Assembly (NCBI GenBank): GCA_038207085.1
Contig: JBBRAE010000041.1
Coordinates: forward strand, 1-23,405
Length of the DNA: 23,405 bases
Source: Armatimonadota bacterium
Lineage (GTDB): Bacteria > Armatimonadota > UBA5829 > DTLH01
Direction: 5' to 3'
The notes under the pieces were generated by a model that was not told where the DNA came from, did no database searches, and saw only the letters and a list, made by a program, of their open reading frames with translations. This document shows, in pieces, positions 678 through 14,651 of this stretch; position 1 is the stretch's first letter; each line of letters starts with the position of its first letter. The position numbers and the translations under genes are program-made.

Positions 678-1120
678 CTCGTCACCTGTTCCCTATTACC
701 TGATTCCTGTTTGCTACCGAGCGGGTTGGGTCCGATCTTGCGCACCCGCTCCGTCATCTCGGTTACAATCTCCGCAAACCTCGCGCCCATCGCGCTTGAG
801 AGGTTATAAAACTCCACGCGCTCCGGCTCCATACCGGCCTCAAGCATGATCTGTTTGGCAAGGCCGATGCGCTTTTTGGCCCGGAGGTTCCCTTCCTGGA
901 AATGGCAGCCGCCTTCGAGGCATCCTGCGATGATCACGCCGTCCGCGCCGTTTTCAAACGCCCGCAGCACGTAGCCGATGTCCATCTTGCCCGTGCATGG
1001 CAGCCTGAGCACCCGGACGTTGGGCGGATACTGGAGCCTCATCGACCCCGCGAGGTCCGCCGCGGCGTATGCGCAGTAGTTGCAGCAAAGCGCCAGGATT
1101 TTCGGTTCGAAGTTACTCAT
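674..1120 (-). CDS. mvhD: MvhD/FlpD [2Fe-2S] subunit
   Basis: Start re-called to ATG 1120 (MSNFEPKILALCCNYCAYAAADLAG), which overlaps the hdrA stop as ATGA. Motifs PCTG and GCLEGGCHFQEGN. 148 aa. Confidence 0.92.
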   Translation of the reverse strand: MSNFEPKILALCCNYCAYAAADLAGSMRLQYPPNVRVLRLPCTGKMDIGYVLRAFENGADGVIIAGCLEGGCHFQEGNLRAKKRIGLAKQIMLEAGMEPERVEFYNLSSAMGARFAEIVTEMTERVRKIGPNPLGSKQESGNREQVTR

Positions 1121-4100
1121 AGCAGGGACAACTCCTCCATCATCGCATCGATTGCGGCGACGATCTGCAGGTCGGTGAAGTGCTGAAGCTCGATCGCCTT
1201 GCCCGGGCACGCCGAGGCGCAGCTTCCGCAGCCCATACACTTCGCGGCGTCGATTGCCACACGGGTCTTGCCGCCATTGTTGGTCGGGATCGGCGCGCCG
1301 TACGGACACACCTTGACGCATGTCATGCACGACGCGCACTTTCTGACGTCGACCACGCTCACCATACCACCGACGGGAATCGTCTTTCGCGAAAGCACCG
1401 TCGCCGCTCGTCCAGCGGCTGCAAGCGCCTGTGAGAGGTTCTCCGTAAGCGGCTTGGGCGAGTGCGCGAGGCCGCAAAGGAACAACCCTTCGGATGCGAA
1501 ATCCACAGGCCGAAGCTTCATATGCGCCTCAAGGAAGAACCCGTCCATATTGACCGGCACCTTGGCAAGCTCACTCACCGCAAGGTTGTCCCCGGCCGAT
1601 ATGCCCGTCGAAAGCGCGAGCAGATCAACCGAAAGATCGATCTTTCGCCCCGTCGCAGGCTCTGTAAACGTAACAACGAGCTTATCTTTGCCCGAAACGC
1701 GTGGCGCATCGTTCTCATCGTAGCGAATGAATATGACGCCAGCCTCGCGTGCCTTCTGGTAAGCCTCTTCGCGCATCCCGTAGGTGCGCATCTCGCGGTA
1801 AAGGACGACCACTTCGGCGTCCGGGCGCTTCTCTTTGATCGCAAGCGCGTTTTTCACCGCCGCCGAGCAGCACACGCGGCTGCAGAACGGACGCTCCTCG
1901 TTTCGCGAGCCGACGCAGCCAATCATCGCAACCGTCGCGTCTTTCGGCAGCTCAAGCCCACCGGCGAGCTTCTCTTCGAGGTCATACTGAGTCATAACTC
2001 TGGGGTCTTCACCCAGGAGATATTCGTTCGGACGGTGGGCAACGCCGCCCGTTGCGACTATCACAACACCGTGTTCAATAGTGCGGCCGTCCGAAAGCTT
2101 GCTTGCAAAATGGCCGATATGGCCATCGAGCTTAACAACTTCGGTATTCAGATACACCTTGATCCTGGGCATATTTTCGACCGACTCGATCAAACGATTC
2201 TTGAACGACTGAACATCCTCGCCAAAGAGCGTCTCGTGCATCTCGTGGAGCCGCCCGCCGAGCTTGCCGGACTTCTCGACCAGGTGCGTCGTATACCCCT
2301 GGCGCGCAAGAGAAAGCGCCGTAGTCAGTCCCGTCGCCCCGCCGCCGATCACCAGCGCCTCAGGAATGACCTTTTGCTGGTCGGTGGTAAGCGCATAGTT
2401 GTGCGCCGCACGGTTGACGGTCATCTGAACGAGATCAAACGCCTTGGAGGTCGCCGAATGGTGGTCGCCTGAGTGCACCCACGAGCATTGATCCCGGATG
2501 TTCGCCATCTCGACCAAATAGGGGTTCAGCCCACACTCCCGCGCCGTGTCCCTGAAGATCGCCTCGTGCGTTCTAGGCGAGCAGGAGGCGACGACCAGAC
2601 GATTGAGGTCGTGCTCCTTGATAAGCTCTTTGATGCGCTCCTGGCTGTTGTCGGCGCAGGCATAGACGGCCGTCTCGGCATAGAAGACACCCGGAATCTG
2701 GCGCGCGGCCTCGACGACCTTCTCTACATCAACGACTGATGCGATGTTGACGCCGCAGTGGCAGACAAAAAGCCCGACCCTGGGCGGCGCATCTGTGAAA
2801 TCGCGCTCTCGCGGATACTTCTTCTCAGTAACAAGCGTGCCTCGCCCTGGCGCAAGCAATTCCATCACCTGCGCGGCGGCCCCTGATGCCTGTGCAACCG
2901 TCTCGGGGATATCTTTTGGCCCCTGGAAGACGCCCGCGACAAACACGCCTGGTTTGCTAGTTGTGACCGGCTCAAGGCCGTCGGTCTTGCAGAACCCGCA
3001 GGCGTCGACGTCTATCCCGACCGTAGTCCCAAGCCGCTTCATCTCCGCGCTTGGAGTAAACCCAGTCGAGAGAACCACGAGGTCGAACTTCTCCTGCCGC
3101 TTCTCGCCGTCGATGTATGAAATCAAGAGGTCATGAGTCCCCGGCACGTCGATCAAACGCGAAGGCATCGCCCGCACGAACTTGACCCCGGCTGCTTTGG
3201 CGCGCTCGAAGTAGCGGTCAAAGTCTTTGCCGAAGGCTCTGATATCCATATAAAAGATGGTAACTTCAAGGCCCGGCTCATGCTCCATCGCGATGATCGA
3301 CTCTTTGATCGCCGCCATACAGCAGAACGCCGAGCAGTAACCCTTGCCGTTGGTGTGATCACGCGAGCCGACGCACTGGATAAACGCAAGCTTTCTGGGC
3401 GCTTTGCCGTCTGAAAGCCTCTGAATATGCCCGGAGAACGGCCCACTCGCCGAGAGCATCCGCTCAAACTGCACGTTTGTCACGACGTTGGGGTAGCGCC
3501 CGTAGCCAAACTCGCCGCGCACCTTGGCGTCAAACTCGCTCGCGCCCGGCGCAAGGAGCACCGCGCCCACCTCAAGCTCAACGAACACATCCTTCATCGT
3601 GTGATCGATCGCCTTAGGCTGGCAGACCTTGACGCATTCCATGCACTCACAGCAGAGCCCGCACGCAAGACAGCGCGAAGCTTCGGCCTTGGCCTGTTCC
3701 TCGCTGTAGCCCTCGTGAGGCAGGGGGATCTGTTTTTCACGAGGAATCGCGTTTCGTCTGTGCGCAAGCTCAAGCTTCTGGTGCTTCTCGTCGTTCCAAA
3801 GTCTCGGGTCCGCGCTTCTGCCCTCGGCCATGTCTTCGCTTCGGATATATCGGTCGATCGACTCAGCCGCGCGCTTGCCTGCAGCGACAGCTTCAGAAAG
3901 CGTCCCTGCGCCCGCGACGACATCTCCGCCCGCGAAGACTCCGTTTACGTTTGTAGCAAGCGTTACGGGGTCAACGTCTAAGAGGCCCCACTTGTTAAAC
4001 TCAAACTCTATACCGCCGCAGAAGTCCTTAGCAACCTGCTGACCGATCGCCACAAGCGCAGTGTCGCACTCGAGGGTGTGCTCGCTTCCCGCGACCGCCT

Positions 4101-5529
4101 CGGGTCTGCGCCTGCCGCTTGCGTCTTTGTCCTCAGAAAGCGCCATCTTGATAAGCTCCACGCCTGAGAGCTTGCCGTCACGCCCCACAAACCTCTTGGG
4201 GTTCACAAGGAAGCTGAACTTCACGCCTTCTGCTATCGCATCCTCGACCTCGGTCGGGTCAGCGGGCATCTCGCGCTTGGTCCGGCGATAAAGCACGGTC
4301 ACATCAGAGCCGATGCGACGAGCGGCCCGGGCGACATCCATCGCCGCGTTTCCGCCGCCGATCACAACGACCCGCTTGCCAATCTCCACCTTTTGCCCGA
4401 GGTTCACGCGCTTGATAAAATCAAGCCCCTTATCGACGCCCCTCAGCTCCTCCCCCTTGACGCCCATCTCGGTCGCCGCCTGAGCGCCCGCCGCGACAAA
4501 AACCGCGCTGTAGCCCTGGCCCTTGAGGTCAGCGATCGTCATATCGCGCCCTATGGGAGAGTTGGTCTTGATCTCAACGCCAAGCGACTCGATAGCTTTG
4601 ATCTCGCCGTCCATCACGTTGCGGGGCAGCCGAAAGTCCGGGATACCCATCCGCATCATACCGCCCGCAACCGCCATAGCCTCAAGGATCGTGACCCCAT
4701 AGCCGCGCCGAGCAAGGTAGTCAGCAGCTCCAAGCCCCGCAGGCCCCGAGCCGATAATCGCGACCCTCTCGCCTCTGCGCTCGATCTCAGGAGCAGTCTG
4801 AGCGCCCGTGTGCTCGATGACGAATCTCTTCAGCCCTCGCACCGAAAGCGGCTCATCATATCGCCCGCGCTGGCACTCGCTTTCACAGGGCCTGTGGCAG
4901 ACGTAGCTGCAGATCGAGGGCAGCGGGTTGTCCTTGCGGATGATCGCCACAGCCTCGTCAAACTTTCCATTGGCGACGAGCTGGATATAGGCCTGCGCGT
5001 TCTGCCCCATCGGACACGCCGAAACGCACGGAGCGGTGTCGCGCTTGCTGATCGAAAAAACGTTGGGGACAGCCTGAGCATAGGGACGATTGATCGCGCC
5101 CCGGGTATTGAGCCCCTTGTTGAACTCGTTTGGCACCCGCACAGGGCACGCTCGCTCGCAGTCGCCGCAGGCGTTGCACTTGTCCTCGTCGACCAGGCGC
5201 GCTTTTTTGCGCAGGCGAACGGTGAAGTTCCCCGCCTCGCCCGAGACCTCTTCGACCTCGGAGAGCGTCAGAATCTCGATATTCTGGTTGCGCGCGCACT
5301 CCACGAGCTTGGGCGATATGATACACATCGCGCAGTCGCCGGTCGGGAACGTCTTGTCGAGGCTCGCCATCCGCCCGCCGATCGAGGCCGTCGGCTCCAC
5401 AAGGTAGACCTTGAAGCCGGAGTTCGCCATATCTAGCGCGGCCTGAATCCCCGCGATACCACCGCCGCAGACCATCACCGCGCCCGTTGGGCTTATGCTA
5501 ATATTCGGTTGCATAGATTCTTCAATCAT
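1117..5529 (-). CDS. hdrA: Large HdrA-family flavoprotein (HdrL type): two HdrA FAD modules plus an inserted GltD-like NAD(P)H oxidoreductase module
   Basis: First HdrA module: GGGIAG, LDKTFPTGDC, IQCVGSR, YCSAFCC. GltD-like insert: CVSACP, CHRPCESEC, IIGSGPAG, VIGGGNAAMD, LYRR. Then CHCG/CSP/CSWVH. Second HdrA module: GGGATG, CVGSR, CSRVCC. C-terminal 2x[4Fe-4S] ferredoxin. Confidence 0.9.
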   Translation of the reverse strand: MIEESMQPNISISPTGAVMVCGGGIAGIQAALDMANSGFKVYLVEPTASIGGRMASLDKTFPTGDCAMCIISPKLVECARNQNIEILTLSEVEEVSGEAGNFTVRLRKKARLVDEDKCNACGDCERACPVRVPNEFNKGLNTRGAINRPYAQAVPNVFSISKRDTAPCVSACPMGQNAQAYIQLVANGKFDEAVAIIRKDNPLPSICSYVCHRPCESECQRGRYDEPLSVRGLKRFVIEHTGAQTAPEIERRGERVAIIGSGPAGLGAADYLARRGYGVTILEAMAVAGGMMRMGIPDFRLPRNVMDGEIKAIESLGVEIKTNSPIGRDMTIADLKGQGYSAVFVAAGAQAATEMGVKGEELRGVDKGLDFIKRVNLGQKVEIGKRVVVIGGGNAAMDVARAARRIGSDVTVLYRRTKREMPADPTEVEDAIAEGVKFSFLVNPKRFVGRDGKLSGVELIKMALSEDKDASGRRRPEAVAGSEHTLECDTALVAIGQQVAKDFCGGIEFEFNKWGLLDVDPVTLATNVNGVFAGGDVVAGAGTLSEAVAAGKRAAESIDRYIRSEDMAEGRSADPRLWNDEKHQKLELAHRRNAIPREKQIPLPHEGYSEEQAKAEASRCLACGLCCECMECVKVCQPKAIDHTMKDVFVELEVGAVLLAPGASEFDAKVRGEFGYGRYPNVVTNVQFERMLSASGPFSGHIQRLSDGKAPRKLAFIQCVGSRDHTNGKGYCSAFCCMAAIKESIIAMEHEPGLEVTIFYMDIRAFGKDFDRYFERAKAAGVKFVRAMPSRLIDVPGTHDLLISYIDGEKRQEKFDLVVLSTGFTPSAEMKRLGTTVGIDVDACGFCKTDGLEPVTTSKPGVFVAGVFQGPKDIPETVAQASGAAAQVMELLAPGRGTLVTEKKYPRERDFTDAPPRVGLFVCHCGVNIASVVDVEKVVEAARQIPGVFYAETAVYACADNSQERIKELIKEHDLNRLVVASCSPRTHEAIFRDTARECGLNPYLVEMANIRDQCSWVHSGDHHSATSKAFDLVQMTVNRAAHNYALTTDQQKVIPEALVIGGGATGLTTALSLARQGYTTHLVEKSGKLGGRLHEMHETLFGEDVQSFKNRLIESVENMPRIKVYLNTEVVKLDGHIGHFASKLSDGRTIEHGVVIVATGGVAHRPNEYLLGEDPRVMTQYDLEEKLAGGLELPKDATVAMIGCVGSRNEERPFCSRVCCSAAVKNALAIKEKRPDAEVVVLYREMRTYGMREEAYQKAREAGVIFIRYDENDAPRVSGKDKLVVTFTEPATGRKIDLSVDLLALSTGISAGDNLAVSELAKVPVNMDGFFLEAHMKLRPVDFASEGLFLCGLAHSPKPLTENLSQALAAAGRAATVLSRKTIPVGGMVSVVDVRKCASCMTCVKVCPYGAPIPTNNGGKTRVAIDAAKCMGCGSCASACPGKAIELQHFTDLQIVAAIDAMMEELSLL

Positions 5530-5577
5530 ATTCTTTAGTCTCCAAATGGAGTTAGAAAGCGAGAAAAGCTTAATCTC

Positions 5578-5698
5578 GATCGTGTCGTGTCTCCAGACGC
5601 GGCACGCATATTTGAGGAGTCTCCTGACTCCGATCCGTGCGCTGCGGGGTCAGAGACCCTGGGAATATCCGCGCTGGGTCTGGAGACCCAGCGCGATC
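5578..5698. repeat. REP-doublet-like palindromic element bounded by GATC
   Basis: GATC followed by hairpin cgtgtcgtgtc-tcca-gacgcggcacg at the left end. Mirrored hairpin cgcgctgggtc-tgga-gacccagcgcg followed by GATC at the right end. Inner small hairpins ggagtc-tcct-gactcc and gggtc-aga-gaccc. Confidence 0.65.
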
Positions 5699-5705
5699 AA
5701 AAGCA

Positions 5706-6560
5706 TTACTTCATCATCGCAGGCGCAGCCGTAAACAGCCTCCCAAGCCCAAGCGCCGAAGCGTCGAGCCCGAGCGCGTAGCCAATGAGCTGAGTAAAGT
5801 AAAGCACCGGCACGCCAAGCTTGGTGCCGTATTTGGACTCGATATCCTTCTGCCTCATATCCAAGTTCGCCTGGCAGAGTGGACACGCCGCGGCGAGGCA
5901 ATCGGCCCCGGCGGCTTTCGCCATCTCTATGATGTCCCGGCCAAGCTCTTCGACCGCCGACTTGTTGGTGATCGCAAAGCTCCCGCCGCAGCACTCAAGC
6001 GCGTGCGGCCACTCCATCGGCTCCGCTCCAAGAGCAATGAGCAGGTTCTCCATAAGCTTCGGCGACTCAGGGTCGTCAAATATCGAAAGCTCGCGCGGTC
6101 TTGAAAGCAAACACCCGTAATATCCGGCGACTTTGAGCCCGTCGAGACTCCGAACCGCCATACTCTTGATCTCAGCGATGCCGACATCTTCTGTAAGCAC
6201 CTGAAGCAGATGCCGCACCCGCACCTCACCCGCGTAGGGCATTCCGATAATCGCCTCAACCTTGGCGCGCATCTCGGGATCGTTTTTCATCACCATGTTT
6301 GCGTTGGCGAGCCTGCTGTAGCACGCCGCGCAGACCACGACCATATCGCGCCCAAGCTTTGCGGCCTCGGCGAGGTTCTTGGCGGGAAGCGCAACGGAAA
6401 GCGTCGCATCGACCGAGTGCGCCGGGGTCGAGCCGCAGCACGTCCAGCCCGGAAGCTCATCAAGCCTGATGTCGAGCGCTTTGGCTAGAGCCATCGTCGA
6501 CTCGTGGAAGTCCCGCGCCGTCGACTCAAGCGAACACCCGGGGAAGAAGGTGTATCTCAT
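5706..6560 (-). CDS. hdrB: Heterodisulfide reductase-like subunit B (two CCG domains)
   Basis: YTFFPGCSL, WTCCGS, VCAAC, YYGC, ECCGG and ACPLCQ. ATGA overlap with hdrC. Confidence 0.93.
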   Translation of the reverse strand: MRYTFFPGCSLESTARDFHESTMALAKALDIRLDELPGWTCCGSTPAHSVDATLSVALPAKNLAEAAKLGRDMVVVCAACYSRLANANMVMKNDPEMRAKVEAIIGMPYAGEVRVRHLLQVLTEDVGIAEIKSMAVRSLDGLKVAGYYGCLLSRPRELSIFDDPESPKLMENLLIALGAEPMEWPHALECCGGSFAITNKSAVEELGRDIIEMAKAAGADCLAAACPLCQANLDMRQKDIESKYGTKLGVPVLYFTQLIGYALGLDASALGLGRLFTAAPAMMK

Positions 6561-7099
6561 CGTTTCTTCTCCTCGACTTTCTGGAAAATCCGCCGCACAC
6601 CCGCAGAATCGGCGCCCTTGGGAGGCATAAGCTTCATTTTGCCCTTCTGAAACATCGCGCGGCCCTTGTCCATGTCGCTAAAGAAATCGCGCGTCTTAAG
6701 CTTGTAACTGAGCAGCATCAACGGCTCATAGACCCGTCCGTGGCGCTTAACAGAGCCGAGGAACGAGTCGTTAAACGCGCTAGACCTGCTCTCGGCCGAC
6801 TTCTTCTCCCGCGTCGCGATCTCCCGAAGCGCGTCGATCACCTCAGGGGTCTTGACCCCCATCGGGCATCGGCTGACGCATGTCGCGCACGAGGCGCACG
6901 CCCAAACCGTCTTGCTCTTGAGGACCTCCTCGCGCGCGCCGAGCTGGATCATACGGATCAACTGGCTTGGCCGCAGGTCGGTTTCAAAGCTCATCGGGCA
7001 CCCCGCGGAGCACTTGCCGCACTGGTAGCAGGCCGAAACCCTGAGCCGTCCCTGCGGATCGATCTCGGTCACAAACTCCGAAGTGAAAAGCTTACTCAT
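6557..7099 (-). CDS. hdrC: Heterodisulfide reductase-like subunit C (2x[4Fe-4S])
   Basis: CYQCGKCSAGCP and WACASCATCVSRCP. Start at 7099 preferred because GGAGG lies 9 nt upstream; 7108 is the alternative. Confidence 0.92.
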   Translation of the reverse strand: MSKLFTSEFVTEIDPQGRLRVSACYQCGKCSAGCPMSFETDLRPSQLIRMIQLGAREEVLKSKTVWACASCATCVSRCPMGVKTPEVIDALREIATREKKSAESRSSAFNDSFLGSVKRHGRVYEPLMLLSYKLKTRDFFSDMDKGRAMFQKGKMKLMPPKGADSAGVRRIFQKVEEKKR

Positions 7100-9713
7100 C
7101 GCCTTCATCCTCCAACCCCTCAGGGATAGGGCTCGACACAGCCGCCGGCTTCACCGCCGAAACCTTGCGGTAGACATCAAGCGGGCTGCGCTTGATCCCG
7201 TCGACGGTCAACAGATCATCGATCTTCACGCCAAACAGTCGCTCGTTTTCTTCAAGGAACGGCAGGATGACCTTCCAGTCGGCCTCGGTCATATCCGAGA
7301 AGTAGCCGCCGTTCAGCTGATCGAGCGAGAGCGTCTTTCGCGGGTCCCTGGCATAGATCGCGCCGCCCGAGGCAAGAGAGAACAGGTTGCTCCCCGGATA
7401 CGGCGACGCAAGCTCGACGATATTTGCATTGTGGTCGAACTTGACGCCGTTTAGGATAACAAACCCTCCACCCGCCAAGGGGTCCCCGGCCATAAACGAC
7501 TCGGCGAGGAAGTCGAGGCACGTCCCGTTGATAACAACCTTGGGCCGCCCGACGCCGTTGATAAGTGGCCGCCCGGCAGCATTTCCAAGAATCCAGACAT
7601 CTCCGCCCTTCGCGCCATACATAAAGGTCTGCCCGACGTCTCCATAGACCACGAGTTTCCCTTCTTTGGCGACCTGCCCGAGCTGGTCCTGTGCGTTGCC
7701 GTGGACGTAAAGCTCAAGCCCGTCTATGCCTGAGGCCAGATAGTCGCCAGAGCTTCCGTAGGCATCGATTCGCACCCCGTGAGTCCCCGGGCCAAGCCCA
7801 CACCCCAGGAACCTCTGCCCGATATAGCCGTAGCAGATAAAGCGTTTCCAACCCAGGAAGAACCCGTCGGCGACGTAGCGGGAATCGCAGTCGTCCTCGG
7901 GCGGGAACCCGTGGGCGTCTACAACAAGCACCTCTTCAAGCCCCTCAGGAGCACGAAGCTCGCCTCGCGTGTCCCAATCTATCCTGGCAAAGCGCGAAGC
8001 TCCAACCGCCTGAGGCATAAGAGTGACTGAGGCGAATATCTCGTCCAGACTCCGGTCGATAATATCAAGAATCGAGGCCCGCTTTTTCTCACCGGTCGGG
8101 TAATGCCTGTCGCGAAGAAGGGTCAGCGCCTCGATGATGACCGATTTGGCCGCATCCGACTCACCTGCGCGCTTCACAAGCTCGCGCGCCGTCCAGCGAA
8201 CGTCGTTCCAGCTCCAACTCGCAATGCTCGTCCTCACCCAGTCAAACATCAGTCCGGCATCAAACGAGCGAGCGACCTCATCGAGCTTGGCCGCGATATC
8301 ACCAGAGGCAGATGAAATCTCAGCCGTGAGATCAACGTGCTTCTGTCCCGATGGCAGCTTCACATCGCGCCCGAACTTGTCGGTGCAGACCATATCTTTC
8401 TCTTCGCCGCCGGTCAGCGTGAACATAAACGCGCCGCCGTCGGTGTGGCTTCCGCCTCGTGCGTTCCAATAGGTGTCGGCCACTCGGCAGAACCTGGGGT
8501 CTTCGGAGGCGAGGCTGTGGAGCGTCGCGTCGATCGCCTGCTTTTCAGAGCACAGAAAGCCGATCTTCACTTCCTCGTTCTCCATCATAGCAAACACCTG
8601 GGGCCGAAGCATCGCTGTGTCGGTGATGCCAAGCAGCTGATACTCCTGCTTGTCCGGGTTGCTCCGGGCGATGATAAAGAACCAAGGCCCGTCAGGCGAA
8701 GCATGAATGTGCGCGGCCTGCATCTGCCGGTAGACTTCCTGCTTTTCGATCGGCAACATATCAAAGTCCCGCTCGGTCGTCGGGGCGAGGCCTTCGATGA
8801 TATACTCAAGCGGATATTTATATATTCTATTCCAAAGGTCAAAAACGAGCACTGAGACCTCGGTGTCGGTCAGGAACAACGGCTTCACATTTCGCTGCAA
8901 CAGATACTCGCAGACCGAGTAGTAGTTCGCGAAGTCGCCGTTGTGGACCAGGGCCTCGTTCATCCCGCAGAAGGGGTGAGCGCCGCCGGGGTGCCACACG
9001 CGGCCCTTTGTGGGGTAGCGCTGGTGGGCGATCCAGATGTGGGCTTTGAAGTCCTCAAGACCATAGTATTCGACGTTCGCCTCGGCATACCCGACGATCT
9101 TGAAGATCGCCATATCGCGCCCGTGCGAGAGCACAAACGCCTGCTTGTCACCGAGCGCCGCATAGAACTTGGAGTTGAGCTTAAACGAGTTCTGATACAT
9201 AAACTCGTCCTCGATCTCCCGGGCGGGTGCGCCGTCAAGGCCCAGTTCTTTGGTAAACGCCTCAAGAACCGCGGGCTTAACTCGCACAAAGTATCGCCAA
9301 ACGTCCGGCGGCTTCACTTCAAGCCCGATCTCGCGCCAATCCTTGACCGGCTCGACAAAGGTTCGGGAGTGAACGTCAAACACGGGGTCGACGAACTCGG
9401 CTTCGACCGTTTCACGCGCCGCAGGGTCAAGGATCGCGATCTGGAGCAGATAGTGACTGCTCAAAATCTCTCGGGAGACGCCAAGCTGCTCAGGATCAAG
9501 CCCGACGCATGCGATGCCTCCGCCCTTGCCGTTGCCTCTGTTGTGCATCTGCACGCTAGGCTCATAGATGTGTTTTCCGCGCACGGGAACGGTAGACGCA
9601 AACCCCGTAACGCCGCATCCGCCTTCCTCGTCGACGCTCATCATGCCCTTCGGGTCCCAATCGCCGACAAGCCGCATCCGGCTATCAAGTATCTTCTTTG
9701 AAATATCAATCAT
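7092..9713 (-). CDS. Glutamate synthase-related subunit: class II glutamine amidotransferase domain fused to a C-terminal GXGXG beta-helix domain
   Basis: Amidotransferase motifs EEGG-CGVTGF (Ntn Cys33), HNRG, AHQRYPT..AHPF, HNGD and TDTE. C-terminal repeats GQRFLGCG, GSSGDYLASG, GDVGQTFMYGAKGG and GNAAGR. No FMN barrel. Confidence 0.85.
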   Translation of the reverse strand: MIDISKKILDSRMRLVGDWDPKGMMSVDEEGGCGVTGFASTVPVRGKHIYEPSVQMHNRGNGKGGGIACVGLDPEQLGVSREILSSHYLLQIAILDPAARETVEAEFVDPVFDVHSRTFVEPVKDWREIGLEVKPPDVWRYFVRVKPAVLEAFTKELGLDGAPAREIEDEFMYQNSFKLNSKFYAALGDKQAFVLSHGRDMAIFKIVGYAEANVEYYGLEDFKAHIWIAHQRYPTKGRVWHPGGAHPFCGMNEALVHNGDFANYYSVCEYLLQRNVKPLFLTDTEVSVLVFDLWNRIYKYPLEYIIEGLAPTTERDFDMLPIEKQEVYRQMQAAHIHASPDGPWFFIIARSNPDKQEYQLLGITDTAMLRPQVFAMMENEEVKIGFLCSEKQAIDATLHSLASEDPRFCRVADTYWNARGGSHTDGGAFMFTLTGGEEKDMVCTDKFGRDVKLPSGQKHVDLTAEISSASGDIAAKLDEVARSFDAGLMFDWVRTSIASWSWNDVRWTARELVKRAGESDAAKSVIIEALTLLRDRHYPTGEKKRASILDIIDRSLDEIFASVTLMPQAVGASRFARIDWDTRGELRAPEGLEEVLVVDAHGFPPEDDCDSRYVADGFFLGWKRFICYGYIGQRFLGCGLGPGTHGVRIDAYGSSGDYLASGIDGLELYVHGNAQDQLGQVAKEGKLVVYGDVGQTFMYGAKGGDVWILGNAAGRPLINGVGRPKVVINGTCLDFLAESFMAGDPLAGGGFVILNGVKFDHNANIVELASPYPGSNLFSLASGGAIYARDPRKTLSLDQLNGGYFSDMTEADWKVILPFLEENERLFGVKIDDLLTVDGIKRSPLDVYRKVSAVKPAAVSSPIPEGLEDEGDE

Positions 9714-11226
9714 TGGTGTAATCCATATGCCGCAACAGGTCCGTGCGGCCCGAAAGCTCCTTCACGCTCTTTAGGCCCAGCCGAACGAGCAAATCGACCA
9801 GCTGCTCATGCCACGCAAAGTAAAGATTTGTGAGCCTCTGCGTGACCCACTCTATCTGCATCTTGTCCACAAGCTCAAGGTCCGTCGTCGCGATCCCGCG
9901 CGCGCATCCCCTGCCCGACTCGCAACGCCTGCAGCGTATGCACCCCGTCGCGACCATCTCGCTTGTGCCGATCACAACCCCGTCGGCCCCAAGTGCGATC
10001 GCCTTGGCAATATCTGTCGCCGTCCTGATGCCGCCCGAAACGATCAACGTCACGTGCTCCCTGATCCCCTCGTCTTTCAGGAACTGGTCGACCTTGGAGA
10101 TACCATATTCAATCGGCGTCGCGATGTTCTTCTTCGCGATATCCGGGGCAGCGCCCGTCCCGCCGTAGCTTCCGTCGAGGTGCACGATGTGCGCTCCCGC
10201 GTAGAAGCTCCCGACCGCCACCATATCAACGTCCGCCGGGGTCGAAACCTTGGCCGAAACAAGCGCCGTTCGGTTGATGTGCTTGATCCAGTCGATGTGT
10301 TTTTTATGGTCTTCGATCGAATACACGCTATGGAACGGGAACGGCGAGAAGAGCGGCGTCCCCGGAGTCGCTTCGCGCATCGCTGCAACCGACGGTGTGT
10401 TCTTGTCGCCCATCAGGTGGCCGCCAAGCCCCGGTTTCGCGCCCTGCGCGTATTTGAACTCGACGATCCGCGCGCGCATAATCGTCTCTTCTCTTATGCC
10501 GAAAAGCCCCGTCGCAACCTGCGTTATGACGTGGTCTTTATAGGGCACAAGCCGCTCGATATAGCCGCCCTCGCCGGTGTTGGTAAACGAGTTCCACGCC
10601 TTGAACGCCCGGGCGCGCCCGACAATCAGGTGCGGGCTCACCGACCCAAAGCTCATCCCGCCGCCATACCACGGGACATCTATCACCACGCTGGGTCTGT
10701 CATCCCCGCGCCGATTGAGCTCAAGGTGCGTATCGACCTCGCTTGGGTCCACCTTCTCGGGGTTCTCAGGAAATACAAAGTAAAGCTTATCAAACCCGCC
10801 GCCGGAGTTTCCGACCTGGCTTTCAAGGTCGCCTACCGGAGGCTTTCCGGTTTCGGCCATCTGCCATGTCGAGAGAATCAGGTCCGCAGTCCAACGATAG
10901 TCGCCCATCGACTCATACATCGGGTTCAGCTTGACCGAAAGCGCCTTGGCGGGACATGCGTCCACGCAGAAGTTGCCTTCGGCTTTGCAGCGCTCAGCGC
11001 CGATGCACTTATAGTCGATCGGTCTCACGGGGTCGCGATAGCCCTCGGGCCTCGCGTGCACTTCGTACGGGCAGACCGTCTCGCACTTGCCGCAGTTTGT
11101 GCACGCGTTCGAGCGGCTTACCCGCCACTTGCCGATCGCGTTGCGGTATCTGTCCGGGCAGTGTTTTGCCTTTCGCTCGACCTCGGGGTCGATCCCCAGT
11201 TCAACAACTCGTGTGTCAAGAGCCAT
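9706..11226 (-). CDS. Glutamate synthase FMN-binding subunit (GltB domain 2) with N-terminal ferredoxin
   Basis: Start re-called to ATG 11226 (MALDTRV, GGAGG upstream). Motifs CTNCGKCETVCP, GGMSFGS, TGEGG, QVATG, KYAQGAKPGLGGHL, DGSYGGTGAAP, SGGIR, ALGAD and CIRCRRCESGRGC. Confidence 0.9.
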   Translation of the reverse strand: MALDTRVVELGIDPEVERKAKHCPDRYRNAIGKWRVSRSNACTNCGKCETVCPYEVHARPEGYRDPVRPIDYKCIGAERCKAEGNFCVDACPAKALSVKLNPMYESMGDYRWTADLILSTWQMAETGKPPVGDLESQVGNSGGGFDKLYFVFPENPEKVDPSEVDTHLELNRRGDDRPSVVIDVPWYGGGMSFGSVSPHLIVGRARAFKAWNSFTNTGEGGYIERLVPYKDHVITQVATGLFGIREETIMRARIVEFKYAQGAKPGLGGHLMGDKNTPSVAAMREATPGTPLFSPFPFHSVYSIEDHKKHIDWIKHINRTALVSAKVSTPADVDMVAVGSFYAGAHIVHLDGSYGGTGAAPDIAKKNIATPIEYGISKVDQFLKDEGIREHVTLIVSGGIRTATDIAKAIALGADGVVIGTSEMVATGCIRCRRCESGRGCARGIATTDLELVDKMQIEWVTQRLTNLYFAWHEQLVDLLVRLGLKSVKELSGRTDLLRHMDYTND

Positions 11227-12622
11227 TACTACCATCCTCCGAGCGTCGCTTGCCAAACAGCCTGCCGAACGTTTCTCGCTCAAGATCTTCAAAGAACATA
11301 GCCCGGCCCACTTCACCACGAAGCCGCCGAACCTCGCGAATACCCATCGCGCCGAGCACTTCAAGGAGCTGCGAATGCCACGCGCCCATCAAGTTGACGA
11401 TCCGCTGTGTCGCATACTCCGAATCGCGCTCACCAATACCCTCGGGGCAGACGATCCCACGCCGGCACTTGCCGCAAAGCCTGCACTCAAGCGCCACCAT
11501 CAGCGGCAGGTCGATCGCGATCACGTCCGCGCCGCAGATAATAGCCTTCGCCAGGTGCTCCGCGAGTGCAATCCCGCCGCTTGCGATGATCGTAACCTCG
11601 TCGCGGCAGTTGTTTTCGATAAGCCTGAGGTGAACGTCGCGCAAAACGTCTTTGATGTGCCTGGGGTTAGGCCCGTGCTCGCGCCCTTCGGAGTCGCAGG
11701 CGATGTGGATCACCTCCGCGCCCTCTTTGGCAAGCTTGACGGCCCTGCCTGCAGAGTTCGCCCCGGCCTGGACGCGAATCGCGCAGATAACATCGCGGTT
11801 AACCGACTTCGCCCGCGCAATATGCTCAAATACGTCTTCAGAGTCGCTGAACTCGACAATCGTCGAACCCTTAAGCCACTCCTCGGGCATCTCCGCTCCG
11901 TGGAAGAACGGCGCGACCGACGGCATGTGCGCCGCGATCTCAGGGGTCATATTCTGCGGGTCAAAGAGCGCGACCGTCCCAAGCTCGCGGGCGGCGTGAG
12001 CGATCGCCCGGCGGTTGCCAAGCGACGGCTTGTGCCAAGTCATCGTGTCGAAAATCACAGGGATCGGAAGCGTAAGCATCGGCGGCGGCTCAACTGCGAG
12101 GTTCATCCCGCTAAACGCCAGCCTCCCGAGCTTTCGACCGATATCGACCGATGTGCTGATATACTCGCGCCCGTGGATCCCGTCGCGAGTAGGCCGCACG
12201 ATCTCGGACATGTCGGTCCACATCGAGTCAAACCCAGGCCCCGAAAACGGCCCCGGATACCCTGCGCCTGAGACCGGAACCTTGCCTGTCTCGGCCTGGA
12301 ACCAGGTCGTCGCGATGATATCGGGCTTCCAGTAGTCGTTCCCCATACGAACGAACTGCGGGTTGACGCGCCGGGTGAGAAGTCCCTTGGTGCAGCTCTG
12401 CACGCATGAGAGGCAGCTTCGGCAGTCGTAGAGATAATCGACATAGTCCGTGGTCTCACGGATCTCCCGGTCTTCTTTTGCGTAAACGTCAAAGATGCAC
12501 TCGCGCTTGACGCAGTTGCGGCAGGAGGAACAGTCCTCCCGCCAGTCGATGATCCCGTATTTTCCCACCGGCCTCTTGATAGGCGGCGTAGCTTTTACAT
12601 GAACATGATATTTTGCAGGCAT
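11216..12622 (-). CDS. Divergent glutamate synthase FMN-barrel-like paralogue with N-terminal ferredoxin
   Basis: Has CSSCRNCVKREC, CRSCLSCVQSC, GPGFDSMW, ASGGI, AIICGAD and CRLCGKCRRGIVCP. Lacks the GMSxG, TGEGG and QGAKPGxGG motifs. Confidence 0.82.
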   Translation of the reverse strand: MPAKYHVHVKATPPIKRPVGKYGIIDWREDCSSCRNCVKRECIFDVYAKEDREIRETTDYVDYLYDCRSCLSCVQSCTKGLLTRRVNPQFVRMGNDYWKPDIIATTWFQAETGKVPVSGAGYPGPFSGPGFDSMWTDMSEIVRPTRDGIHGREYISTSVDIGRKLGRLAFSGMNLAVEPPPMLTLPIPVIFDTMTWHKPSLGNRRAIAHAARELGTVALFDPQNMTPEIAAHMPSVAPFFHGAEMPEEWLKGSTIVEFSDSEDVFEHIARAKSVNRDVICAIRVQAGANSAGRAVKLAKEGAEVIHIACDSEGREHGPNPRHIKDVLRDVHLRLIENNCRDEVTIIASGGIALAEHLAKAIICGADVIAIDLPLMVALECRLCGKCRRGIVCPEGIGERDSEYATQRIVNLMGAWHSQLLEVLGAMGIREVRRLRGEVGRAMFFEDLERETFGRLFGKRRSEDGSNGS

Positions 12623-12747
12623 TTTATTAGCTCTCAGCTCACACTCTGTCGGTTATTGTTGGTTGTTGGTCGGAGGAATCTGTCCCCCGGCCCCGTTCCG
12701 CGGATTCTATCCGCCAACCCAGTAATCGACTATCGCCAATAAGTGAA

Positions 12748-12880
12748 GATCGTGCGCGATATTTATCGCGCACGCAAAGAACAGCGAGGGAGCTTGGCTC
12801 CCGGTGAATGGGCTATAGTCGACTCACCGGACTTAAGTCCTCATGCTTCTTTGCATTCGGGAGCAATCTCCCGAAGGATC
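12748..12880. repeat. 133-bp GATC-bounded REP-doublet/MITE-like element, copy A
   Basis: Terminal hairpins cgtgcgcgata-tt-tatcgcgcacg and ttcgggag-caat-ctcccgaa, each flanked by GATC and by GCAAAGAA. Its reverse complement matches 14757-14889 at 106/133 positions (ungapped, hand count). Confidence 0.88.
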
Positions 12881-12894
12881 TTCAATGTTCAATA

Positions 12895-12925
12895 TGCTTC
12901 GGGACAGCTTTTTCATCCCGAAGCA
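12895..12925 (-). terminator. Hairpin downstream of the metF-like gene; possible weak terminator or processing site
   Basis: tgcttcggga-N11-tcccgaagca, a 10-bp stem. No real U-tract follows. Confidence 0.3.
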
Positions 12926-12962
12926 CACCTCCCAGCAAGAGACCCAGTCTCCACTTTACACT

Positions 12963-13799
12963 CTAAAGCTTAATTCCAGCCGAATCCAGCACCCGCGCGG
13001 TGCGGCCTTCACCAGCGTCGTAGATATGGATGCCACGCACGCCGTCGATCTTCTGAACGGCCTTTATGACCTCGACCGCATAGTCAAGGCTCACCTTCTC
13101 GACGACCGAATCGGGGATACTGACCCCGCGATACTTCTCACGAGTCTCAAGCGCCTCGTCTTTGCCCTCAATCGGCAGGATTCCGGCGATGATGTGTATC
13201 TTCTTATCAAGCCCGCGCTCGCGAACAAGCTTCATCCACGCCTCGAACTTCTCAAGGTCGAAGACAGGTGAGGTGATAACAAACCTCGCGCCCGAAGCCG
13301 CAACCTTCTCAAGCACGATCACCTGAAGCTCTATGGGGTCCGAAAACGGGTTGGTAGTCGTCCCCGTGACAAGCTCAGTCCCGTGGTTCAAGTTGTGCGC
13401 GAGCCCCAGAAGCTGGATCGGGTCAAGGTCAAAGACCCCCCGAGACGACCGAGTCTTCTCGTCAAGCGACTGATGGTTCCCCGGCGCGCAGATCACGTTG
13501 TTGATCCCAAGCGACGCCGCGCCGACGAGCATGGACTGAAGCGCCGTGCGGTTCATATCCCGGGTAGTAAGCTCAAGCACCGGCTCGATCCCCGCTTTGG
13601 CGAGGTGAACCCCAGCCGCAAGGCCCGACATCCGAGCGCCTTCGCAGTCCGAAACTACCGCCGCGTGGATCTTCCCAGAAAGGCTTTCCGCTGCTCTGGC
13701 AAGCGCGCCTAGGTCAGCGGCTTCCGGCGGAACAATCCCAGCGGTCACAACAAACCCACCGGCTTCAATAACACTTGCTATTTTGGAGGAAATGGACAT
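12963..13799 (-). CDS. MetF-like flavoprotein (methylene-THF reductase family), divergent
   Basis: FVVTAGIVPP, RMSGLAA, EPVLELTTRDMNRTALQS, GVFDLDPIQLL, KVASGARFVITSPVFD, AGILP and GIHI. Several catalytic positions are substituted. Confidence 0.82.
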   Translation of the reverse strand: MSISSKIASVIEAGGFVVTAGIVPPEAADLGALARAAESLSGKIHAAVVSDCEGARMSGLAAGVHLAKAGIEPVLELTTRDMNRTALQSMLVGAASLGINNVICAPGNHQSLDEKTRSSRGVFDLDPIQLLGLAHNLNHGTELVTGTTTNPFSDPIELQVIVLEKVAASGARFVITSPVFDLEKFEAWMKLVRERGLDKKIHIIAGILPIEGKDEALETREKYRGVSIPDSVVEKVSLDYAVEVIKAVQKIDGVRGIHIYDAGEGRTARVLDSAGIKL

Positions 13800-13813
13800 T
13801 TTGGCTCCACCGT

Positions 13814-14242
13814 TTACAATAGATTAAGGGCACTTCGCCCGAGGGATCTGATCTTTGTGAGTGCCTGCTCGATGGATTTCTCCATCGCTTCAGTGCTTGC
13901 TTCGGGTAGGACGATTTCGATGCGGTCGCCGCCGATTCCAATCTCGTCGAGCACGCCTCGCACATAGCCCGAACGCCTCCCGGCCCGGAGGTTTCCTTCG
14001 GCCATCTTGCACTCGCCAGCAGGACAACCGACGATCACCACGCCGTCCGCGCCGCCTTCAAATGCTTTGAAGAGCCGATGGGGGTCAATCTTGCCTGCGC
14101 ACGGGACGATTTCATAGGTCACACCATCGGCTTCGACATAGTCGAGGGCCGCCCCCGATCCCGCACTCTGGCAGGCATAGAGATAAATGCTGGTTCGGGT
14201 GCTTGCGCCGCCATGCCCAACAACATCGCGCTCAGCTTTCAT
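13814..14242 (-). CDS. MvhD-like [2Fe-2S] protein, divergent second copy
   Basis: VPCAGKID, KAFEGGADGVVIVGCPAGECKMAEGNLRA and LDEIGIGGDRI. AGGAGG Shine-Dalgarno at 14251-14256. Confidence 0.85.
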   Translation of the reverse strand: MKAERDVVGHGGASTRTSIYLYACQSAGSGAALDYVEADGVTYEIVPCAGKIDPHRLFKAFEGGADGVVIVGCPAGECKMAEGNLRAGRRSGYVRGVLDEIGIGGDRIEIVLPEASTEAMEKSIEQALTKIRSLGRSALNLL

Positions 14243-14258
14243 AGATTGATCCTCCTAA

Positions 14259-14378
14259 GTAAATGGCGTATTCTGCCATTTACATTCCCATCGTGACGAG
14301 GCCGACAGCAGCGCGCAGTTTGCGCTGTGAAAGGCCTCAGGCACGATTCCCAAGTAAATGGCGCTTTTTGCCATTTAC
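14259..14378. repeat. Two copies of the palindrome GTAAATGGC-N7-GCCATTTAC enclosing a nested hairpin
   Basis: Copies at 14259-14283 and 14354-14378. Between them: cgtg..gaggcc..cagcgc / gcgctg..ggcctc..cacg. Confidence 0.8.
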
Positions 14379-14394
14379 GTTCACGTAAAAACAC

Positions 14395-14436
14395 AAAAAA
14401 GGCGCTTTCCACCGAACTGATTCGATGGAAAGCGCC
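14395..14436 (-). terminator. Intrinsic terminator (attenuator) in the operon leader
   Basis: mRNA reads GGCGCUUUCCAUCGAA-UCAG-UUCGGUGGAAAGCGCC-UUUUUU: a 16-bp stem with one G-U pair, then U6. It lies between the promoter and the first gene. Confidence 0.88.
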
Positions 14437-14504
14437 TCAATAGCAGACGTGTCAACAGGCGCTTCGCCACGAACCATAACAGTTCGGAGCTGACGCCTTC
14501 GTCA
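14412..14504 (-). promoter_or_regulatory. Putative antiterminator / RNA switch
   Basis: The mRNA segment from 14487-14457 is complementary to the terminator 5' arm and loop (14437-14412). An upstream hairpin UGAC-GAAGGC-GUCA lies at 14491-14504. Confidence 0.6.
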
Positions 14505-14622
14505 TTGAACCAAGAACATACCCGGTTCTGCCGCAGGACCCACACTGGCCGCTGCGACACAAAATCTGAATACTACCCTGTACTCATCAGCCAACGACTA
14601 TTCAGCCGCCAGCCTCTTTAGC

Positions 14623-14651
14623 AATATAACTCTACAGCGCTATATTGTCAA
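14623..14651 (-). promoter_or_regulatory. Sigma70-type promoter for the redox cluster
   Basis: TTGACA-N17-TATATT on the minus strand. Confidence 0.75.

Follow-up and report, generated by a model that had tools for sequence, protein, structure and literature searches.

ANTAR substrates have been described as mini-hairpins of at least 3 bp whose hexaloops carry A at position 1 (A1) and G at position 4 (G4), the second hairpin lying inside the 5′ arm of a terminator (Ramesh 2012, PMC3369931). For EutV, which acts on the Enterococcus faecalis eut genes, a linker of 5–12 nt is needed (PMC3369931); its action was lost when the linker was lengthened by 20 nt, and in the EutV–RNA structure G4 is the sole base-specific contact, a single hexaloop being the minimal site (PMC8934654). 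In Geobacter sulfurreducens, the targets of GnfK/GnfR are leaders of nitrogen-fixation genes: nifH, nifEN and nifX, along with glnK and amtB (Ueki and Lovley 2010, PMC2995071). The site of GnfR, which is an ANTAR protein, is CAGGCAANGGCGCC, i.e. GGC-[AANGGC]-GCC; it was shown by RNA binding and overlaps the leader terminators of nitrogen genes (PMC2995071). Putative ANTAR substrates also occur at glutamate synthase and glutamine synthetase genes of Firmicutes, e.g. Desulfotomaculum reducens and Carboxydothermus (Ramesh 2012, PMC3369931).

The leader described here lies in a 23,405-nt stretch of DNA from an Armatimonadota bacterium (contig JBBRAE010000041.1), which is referred to below as the window; the genome it belongs to is G000. 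Judged from the sequences compared, the leader is a real, conserved attenuator. We consider that it is probably of the ANTAR type, that is, a nitrogen-linked, protein-dependent antitermination attenuator controlling a redox operon that contains glutamate synthase genes.

Elements of the leader

All the elements of the leader lie on the minus strand (Table 1). Three promoter-like sites were present between positions 13800 and 16000, where 0.8 were expected, and no site matching at 9/12 positions or more was found between the terminator T3 and the ATG of the first gene. Transcription is predicted to start near position 14616, giving a leader of 230 nt (about 14616–14387). The two hairpins at its 5′ end are particular to this genome and were not seen in related leaders. 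They are followed by H0, the core of which is lengthened by eight further pairs (fold energy −19.2 kcal/mol), and by Hx, which ends 2 nt upstream of H2; a same-family relative has a counterpart of Hx, GGAUAC-[AUUGCA]-GUAUCU, placed beside a hairpin termed H1 (see below). H2 is proposed to be the antitermination hairpin, putatively bound by a protein. Its loop and 3′ stem make up the 5′ arm of T2*, a larger hairpin that has lost its U tract: the window reads CGCCUGUUGAC where a leader of the same family (L185 of G004) reads CGCCUUUUUGU and most other relatives read CGCCCUUUUU.

Table 1. Positions of the leader elements and neighbouring features in the window
Feature	Position	Strand	Description
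Sigma-70-type promoter	14623..14651	(-)	TTGACA-17-TATATT, 11/12 consensus matches
Two additional 5′ hairpins	14614-14589 and 14586-14567	(-)	From the fold; the second has the hexaloop AGGGUA
H0	14529..14559	(-)	GGCC 14550-14547, hexaloop AGUGUG 14546-14541 (A1 = 14546, G4 = 14543), GGUC 14540-14537
Hx	14507..14528	(-)	8-bp hairpin, hexaloop UAUGUU 14520-14515, G4; −10.5 kcal/mol
H2	14491..14504	(-)	UGAC-[GAAGGC]-GUCA, loop 14500-14495, G4 = 14497
T2*	14453..14501	(-)	Homologous to terminator T2 of the relatives; −21.3 kcal/mol
Antiterminator helix	14418..14476	(-)	T2* 3′ arm paired with T3 5′ arm; −25.7 kcal/mol
T3, intrinsic terminator	14387..14438	(-)	18-bp stem 14438-14399, U tract to 14387; −30.7 kcal/mol
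Inserted repeat element	14249..14386	(-)	Two palindromic units around a GC-rich hairpin
First operon gene, MvhD/FlpD-like	13814..14242	(-)	142 aa

A first-pass annotation, made from the letters of the sequence, had reported the promoter, a strong terminator about 150 nt before the start codon, a UGAC-GAAGGC-GUCA hairpin with G4 and a G at loop position 1 (G1), a near-copy of the terminator 3′ arm further upstream, and an alternative pairing that would exclude the terminator. Each of these was recovered. The stem of T3 ends 157 nt from the ATG at 14242; the near-copy (14454–14474) is 76% identical to the 3′ arm (14397–14417) over 21 nt, and positions 14457–14476 are 75% complementary to 14418–14437 over 20 nt, which gives the antiterminator helix of Table 1. 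Two points are to be corrected. The alternative pairing is particular to this genome and is not the conserved feature; and the second canonical hexaloop that had been missed in the first pass is provided by H0, which has both A1 and G4 and covaries in the related leaders.

The stretch from 14620 to 14380 folds at −106.9 kcal/mol, compared with −76.5 ± 4.2 kcal/mol for 200 shuffled sequences (z = −7.3). That the leader is more than a chance assembly of hairpins is argued mainly by its conservation in 22 other leaders. A leader peptide was also considered: a 17-codon open reading frame runs from an AUG at 14505 over H2 and T2*. It was rejected, as it lacks a Shine–Dalgarno (SD) sequence and its start codon is not conserved, the position being UCG or CUG in several relatives.

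Conservation in related leaders

The Rfam search that the first-pass annotation had recommended did not assign the leader to any family. No Rfam covariance model matched the window at the gathering score; between 14150 and 14850 the only matches were to miRNA and snoRNA models at chance level (E of 1.9 or more), and in 10 related loci, searched at E values up to 1, there were none except for one tRNA. Two covariance models were made from the leaders themselves: R1 represents unit B (10 sequences, the window excluded) and R2 represents unit A (12 sequences). R1 and R2 together found one locus per genome, in 16 of the 52 other genomes of the class (17 of 53 with that of the window). R1 matched the window leader at 14516–14392 (19.6 bits, E = 0.0068), with H2 paired with the T3 3′ arm.

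In metagenomes, a scan by alignment of MvhD gave 80 loci; the upstream regions of 17 were read, and the leader was present in seven, one of which (L079) repeats another (L050). The three nearest MvhD relatives among the metagenome loci (L065, L066 and L068) show a promoter without an attenuator behind it; several other metagenome MvhD loci are paralogues lying behind another gene. A pattern scan of contigs rendered at least 120 matches, mostly chance matches in GC-rich genomes; among the matches listed, 80 loci were scored with R1 and one was real, L244, which reads identically to L180 of G052. The comparison that follows covers 23 distinct leaders, namely that of the window, 16 from genomes of the class and six from metagenome contigs.

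In all 23 leaders the promoter is succeeded by at least one of the units A and B, with short hairpins that overlap intrinsic terminators. Unit A stands alone in seven, unit B alone in six (that of the window included), and both are present in 10. The common layout is a sigma-70-type promoter, H0, a spacer hairpin and then the attenuator unit or units; the promoters of the relatives, which are of the same type, lie directly upstream of H0, the spacer hairpin between H0 and H1 or H2 varies freely in both sequence and length, and in the related genomes the leader abuts the SD. Unit A consists of H1, GGAC-N7/8-GUCC, which overlaps terminator T1, the 3′ half of H1 being the 5′ arm of T1 (GUCCACCC ... 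GGGUGGA plus a U tract). The H1 loop has 7–8 nt in 16 of the 17 leaders with unit A, and 14 nt in the remaining one (L071). Unit B consists of H2, GAC-[GARGGC]-GUC, the loop and 3′ half of which make the T2 5′ arm; this arm begins within the H2 loop in the 10 related unit-B leaders that were folded, while the five found later (L180 and L182–L185) were read by sequence.

The core of H2 was invariant. All 16 unit-B leaders have the GAC/GUC stem, A at loop position 2 and G4, and all 16 conform to GAC-[RARGRY]-GUC; the loops are GAGGGC (nine leaders), GAAGGC (three), GAGGGU (two), AAGGGC (L071) and GAGGAC (one). Fifteen of the 16 have G at loop position 1; A occurs there in L071 only. G1 and C6 can pair, in which case RNAfold draws a 5-bp stem closed by a tetraloop; as a 3-bp hairpin, H2 can only compete with the hairpin that overlaps it if something stabilises it. 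The stem sequences GAC/GUC and GGAC/GUCC do not vary, but for the UGAC 5′ arm of H1 in L185.

Covariation analysis on orthologous leaders, also advised in the first pass, supported H0. The alignment made for H0 excludes four of the 23 leaders: L049 and L051, where the hairpin was not found, L070, which has a 7-nt loop, and L185, where a different A1/G4 hexaloop hairpin lies beside H1. The consensus of the other 19 is GGCC-[ANNGNN]-GGYC, with A1 in 15 and G4 in all 19, the G4 count being partly circular since the metagenome members had first been picked by a pattern that requires G4. Compensatory changes were seen in six of the eight pairs, and 85.5% of the cells in the alignment are paired. 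This value was 70.9% in shuffles, none of which reached that of the real alignment (0/500), and at most 47% in slid controls.

Comparison with known ANTAR substrates

H2 comes near to the GnfR site. In the comparison with the GnfR consensus, GGCAANGGCGCC and GACGAAGGCGUC agree at 8 of the 11 specified positions. Two of the three mismatches together form a compensatory change of a G–C to an A–U stem pair; the remaining one falls at loop position 1, which is G here (A in one of 16 leaders). H2 is also placed in the same way relative to the terminator. As in the GnfK/GnfR leaders, the leader has a short conserved site that overlaps an intrinsic terminator on its 5′ side, the genes behind it are for nitrogen assimilation, and there is a receiver-ANTAR regulator with a partner kinase. 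The present system differs in having one target per genome and a sigma-70-type promoter, as well as a covarying A1/G4 hexaloop hairpin further upstream and often a tandem of two attenuators. Its kinase has GAF domains, whereas GnfK is described as having no sensor domain (PMC2995071), and its host is an Armatimonadota-like bacterium rather than Geobacter.

With EutV the leaders share hexaloop mini-hairpins of at least 3 bp with G4, a second hairpin within the terminator 5′ arm, an upstream A1/G4 hairpin and the possibility of several attenuators in one transcription unit. The window has three hexaloop stem-loops of at least 3 bp (H0, Hx and H2, with the caveat that H2 may be drawn with a tetraloop), and G4 is present in both H0 and H2, bearing in mind that the H0 set was in part selected for it. 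Of the three, H0 has A1, H2 has G1 and Hx has U1. H2 overlaps the terminator in the 10 folded unit-B relatives, and in the window it overlaps T2*, which has no U tract. The linker of 5–12 nt is not kept: Hx and H2 are 2 nt apart, H0 and H2 about 25 nt apart with Hx filling the interval, and H0 is set 40–60 nt from H1/H2 across a hairpin. In the relatives, the stretch from the H0 loop to H1 or H2 measures 23–61 nt, and most of them have a spacer hairpin in it. Further differences from EutV are that the terminator-overlapping hairpin lacks A1, that the loop of unit A has 7–8 nt, and that in the window the hairpin proposed to be bound would act through an added anti-antiterminator hairpin and not by direct overlap with the terminator. 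The resemblance to an ANTAR target that the first-pass annotation had seen in H2 was strengthened by the invariance of H2 in the relatives and its nearness to the GnfR site, and weakened by G1 and the atypical spacing.

The putative substrates of the Firmicutes have in common with the present leaders the regulated gene class, glutamate synthase, and attenuators within nitrogen-assimilation operons. They were derived from a model with two A1/G4 hexaloops, and are compared here by their description; a further difference is that the operon studied here fuses glutamate synthase domains with Hdr-, MvhD- and MTHFR-like genes.

Other candidate sites were sought in the genome of the window. A loose genome-wide scan for two A1/G4 hexaloops with a terminator gave 44 candidates, none of them convincing, and a search for GnfR-like hairpins feeding a terminator gave 11, none of which was evidently a leader. 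The exact H2, H0 and H1 words had 7, 52 and 3 matches elsewhere in this genome; the other exact-word matches look coding by eye, and terminator-like sequence was found only behind the H2 of the window.

Operon and candidate regulator gene

The MvhD/FlpD-like gene is followed in the operon by genes for an MTHFR-like protein, two Glu_synthase (FMN domain) proteins with ferredoxin motifs, a GATase-GXGXG protein, HdrC-like and HdrB-like proteins, a 1470-aa HdrA-like flavoprotein, a second MvhD and a protein with the C-terminal domain of MTHFR. This unusual composition suggests that the glutamate synthase is linked to Hdr and possibly electron-bifurcating, or forms a hybrid with methylene-THF reductase. 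For the MTHFR-like protein, close relatives at E of 1e-55 or better turned up in 12 of the 53 class genomes; the same threshold gave none among the 348 genomes sampled from the rest of the phylum. The operon spans 1117–14242 (minus strand), with the glutamate synthase genes placed between the MvhD/MTHFR-like genes and those for HdrC, HdrB, the HdrA-like fusion, MvhD and the protein with the MTHFR C-terminal domain.

In G004, which belongs to the same family, what follows the same leader is a plain, split operon for glutamate synthase (ferredoxin, Pyr_redox_2, GATase_2, Glu_synthase, GXGXG). Glutamate synthase is the gene class that the regulated operons have in common. A candidate regulator is encoded in the genome of the window: the ANTAR domain (PF03861) was matched at 82.5 bits, at G000:C10:48158-48316, in a 191-aa receiver-ANTAR protein, and the gene is followed by one for a GAF-GAF-HisKA_2 kinase. 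ANTAR genes are present in 50 of the 53 genomes of the class, so their co-occurrence with the leader is uninformative. In G000, no such leader was found before glnA, either of the amtB–glnK pairs or the ANTAR gene, and a search for nifH did not find it. The first-pass annotation had proposed nitrogen-responsive attenuation; the switch, the glutamate synthase operon of G004 and the ANTAR gene speak for it, while the regulation as such is something we infer.

Two minor observations were made in these searches. Both amtB–glnK pairs of G000 share an upstream word, GCTACGAAATC-n3-CCGTAACAATAG (G000:C24 ~41930-41960 and G000:C2 ~186100-186130), which might serve as the site of a nitrogen regulator or as a motif of a small RNA. 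In G019 (G019:C134:219153-224136), an ANTAR response-regulator gene lies ~4 kb upstream of a canonical metF-type gene, a proximity that may be coincidental.

Proposed mechanism and alternative explanations

A scheme that joins these elements can be put forward for the window. By default, the nascent RNA would form T2*, whose 5′ arm is supplied by the H2 loop and the 3′ half of that hairpin; the T3 5′ arm would then be left free, and T3 would terminate transcription before the operon. An activated regulator, most likely the phosphorylated receiver-ANTAR protein encoded beside the GAF histidine kinase, would grip the short hexaloop hairpins, H0 (and/or Hx) serving for recruitment and H2 for antitermination, and T2* would thereby be blocked. 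The T2* 3′ arm, once freed, would pair with the T3 5′ arm as the antiterminator, and RNA polymerase would read through. The relay in the window would accordingly consist of three hairpins, with T2* as an anti-antiterminator, the antiterminator and T3. In line with this order of events, the antiterminator is the minimum-energy fold of a transcript ending at 14417, and T2* plus T3 win once the T3 3′ arm has been made. When H2 was forced, the equilibrium fold still contained T3, which makes the argument for readthrough a kinetic one. The relay is missing in the related genomes, where H2 or its sister H1 overlaps the terminator directly; it is specific to the genome of the window, where it is built on an ancestral terminator that has decayed. 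Of this scheme, the structures, their conservation, the mutually exclusive pairings, the genomic setting and the regulator gene are observed; binding by a protein, which protein it is, the nitrogen signal and the kinetics are inferred.

The ANTAR reading draws on the nearness of H2 to the GnfR site, the glutamate synthase operon of G004, the receiver-ANTAR gene of G000, the invariant core of H2, the covarying H0, the hairpin energies and the match of R1 to the window. The points that tell against it are G1 in 15 of 16 H2 loops, an H1 that is not a hexaloop, a spacing outside the EutV range, and the single locus per genome together with the lack of such a leader before glnA and the amtB–glnK pairs of G000, which is out of the ordinary for a regulator serving a regulon. 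An alternative is a lineage-restricted sensor of a single operon outside the ANTAR family, whether a new riboswitch or the site of another RNA-binding protein, and we regard it as unlikely but not negligible. Nitrogen or redox state might then be read by the tandem GAC-GA..GG..GUC mini-hairpins together with the 5′ A1/G4 hexaloop hairpin, to which we lend no more than limited credence, and the controlled target might be the unusual Hdr-linked glutamate synthase complex, a proposal that we view with similar reserve. The first-pass annotation had offered a new cis-regulatory RNA as its second option; this is not needed given that a variant of a known, ANTAR-type control may account for the leader, though the doubtful chance of a new non-ANTAR sensor is what is left of it.

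As for what such a sensor might be, an undescribed metabolite riboswitch would have a ligand (e.g. glutamine, 2-oxoglutarate or a redox/folate cofactor) steady H0, the spacer and H1–H2 against the terminator. A single locus per genome, always with one type of operon, is usual for riboswitches, the loop nucleotides are invariant and the units come in tandem; having no match to an Rfam family, it would be a new one. However, the conserved parts are hairpins of 3–4 bp, neither a junction nor a pocket is conserved, the spacer hairpin is free in sequence and length, unit A or unit B alone suffices in 13 of the 23 leaders, and no consistent complementarity between the loops of H0 and H1 was seen on inspection by eye. 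The near match to a protein-binding site, that of GnfR, offers a simpler account, and we think a riboswitch improbable.

We judge it just as improbable that a different RNA-binding protein reads the GAC-GA..GG..GUC hairpins, their likeness to ANTAR sites being convergent. Such a protein would fit the non-canonical features, namely G1, the H1 octaloop, the spacing and the presence of a single target, and stems that never vary suggest a sequence-specific reading that goes beyond the G4-only base contact reported for EutV (PMC8934654). On the other hand, no candidate RNA-binding gene was seen beside the operons examined, and in the literature compared, ANTAR proteins are the sole family of nitrogen-linked antiterminators. 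Least probable of all is that, in this genome, the unit from promoter to T3 is by now a relic or a small RNA that stands on its own and is terminated constitutively, with transcription of the operon starting inside or after the repeat element: the great strength of T3 and its persistence in the equilibrium fold with H2 forced, the loss of the ancestral T2 U tract and the 138-nt insertion between T3 and the SD would suit it, but there is no promoter-like site matching at 9/12 positions or more from T3 to the ATG, the complementarities of T2*, the antiterminator and T3 make a coherent relay, H0, Hx and H2 are intact, and related leaders abut the SD and leave no space for another promoter.

If the ANTAR reading, which we prefer, is correct, nitrogen antitermination of the ANTAR/GnfR type would extend to an uncultured Armatimonadota-like lineage. 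The recognition motif would be a relaxed one, with G allowed at loop position 1, units in tandem, and a spacer hairpin that parts distant recruitment and antitermination hairpins, and this would help to explain why many ANTAR targets are missed by model-based searches. Nitrogen status would also be suggested to control an unstudied operon that joins glutamate synthase with Hdr-like, MvhD and MTHFR-like proteins, and the three-hairpin relay would illustrate one way of rebuilding an attenuator whose terminator has decayed.

A repeat element between the leader and the first gene

The repeat element that follows T3 is separate from the switch. Its palindromic units, GTAAATGGC-N7-GCCATTTAC, lie at 14378–14354 and 14283–14259, and it ends at the SD AGGAGG (14256–14251). 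The distance of about 150 nt between terminator and start codon, which the first-pass annotation had noted, is indeed present; it is due to the insertion of this element and not to the switch. When the leader was compared with the DNA of 60 relatives, matches were limited to the part occupied by the repeat element, and the repeat itself had no Rfam match.

G000 has 16 long copies of the repeat; that of the window is among them and is absent from the related leaders. The repeat unit is a palindrome, (G)TAAATGGC-N5-9-GCCATTTA(C), followed by an RGGAG word, and strict units number 49 in this genome. An SD-like word and a start codon (of an open reading frame of at least 50 aa) lie within ~25 nt of 38 of the 49 units, compared with 1.7% of random positions, and all 38 of these SD-associated units have an A-rich spacer on the sense strand. 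A covarying GC-rich hairpin is carried by the 16 long-form loci. Genes of diverse kinds follow the 12 copies that were checked (HIT, atpB, atpE, hisA, ferredoxin, metK, UDP-glucose dehydrogenase, PfkB and others). The repeat could be a stabiliser or processing site at the 5′ end of mRNAs, or a mobile repeat with a strong preference for its site of insertion.

Insertions were also seen in two related leaders. In L183 (G031:C52), from another genus, a unit of the palindrome family, AAAATGGCAAAAACGCCATTTTC, is inserted between T1 and H2, and the MTHFR-like gene at this locus is apparently split into two frames. In L022 (G007:C122), a repetitive insertion of ~270 nt, rich in GGGGAG/CCCTC, lies between T2 and the start codon; it parallels the repeat insertion of the window in that both separate the attenuator from the first gene.
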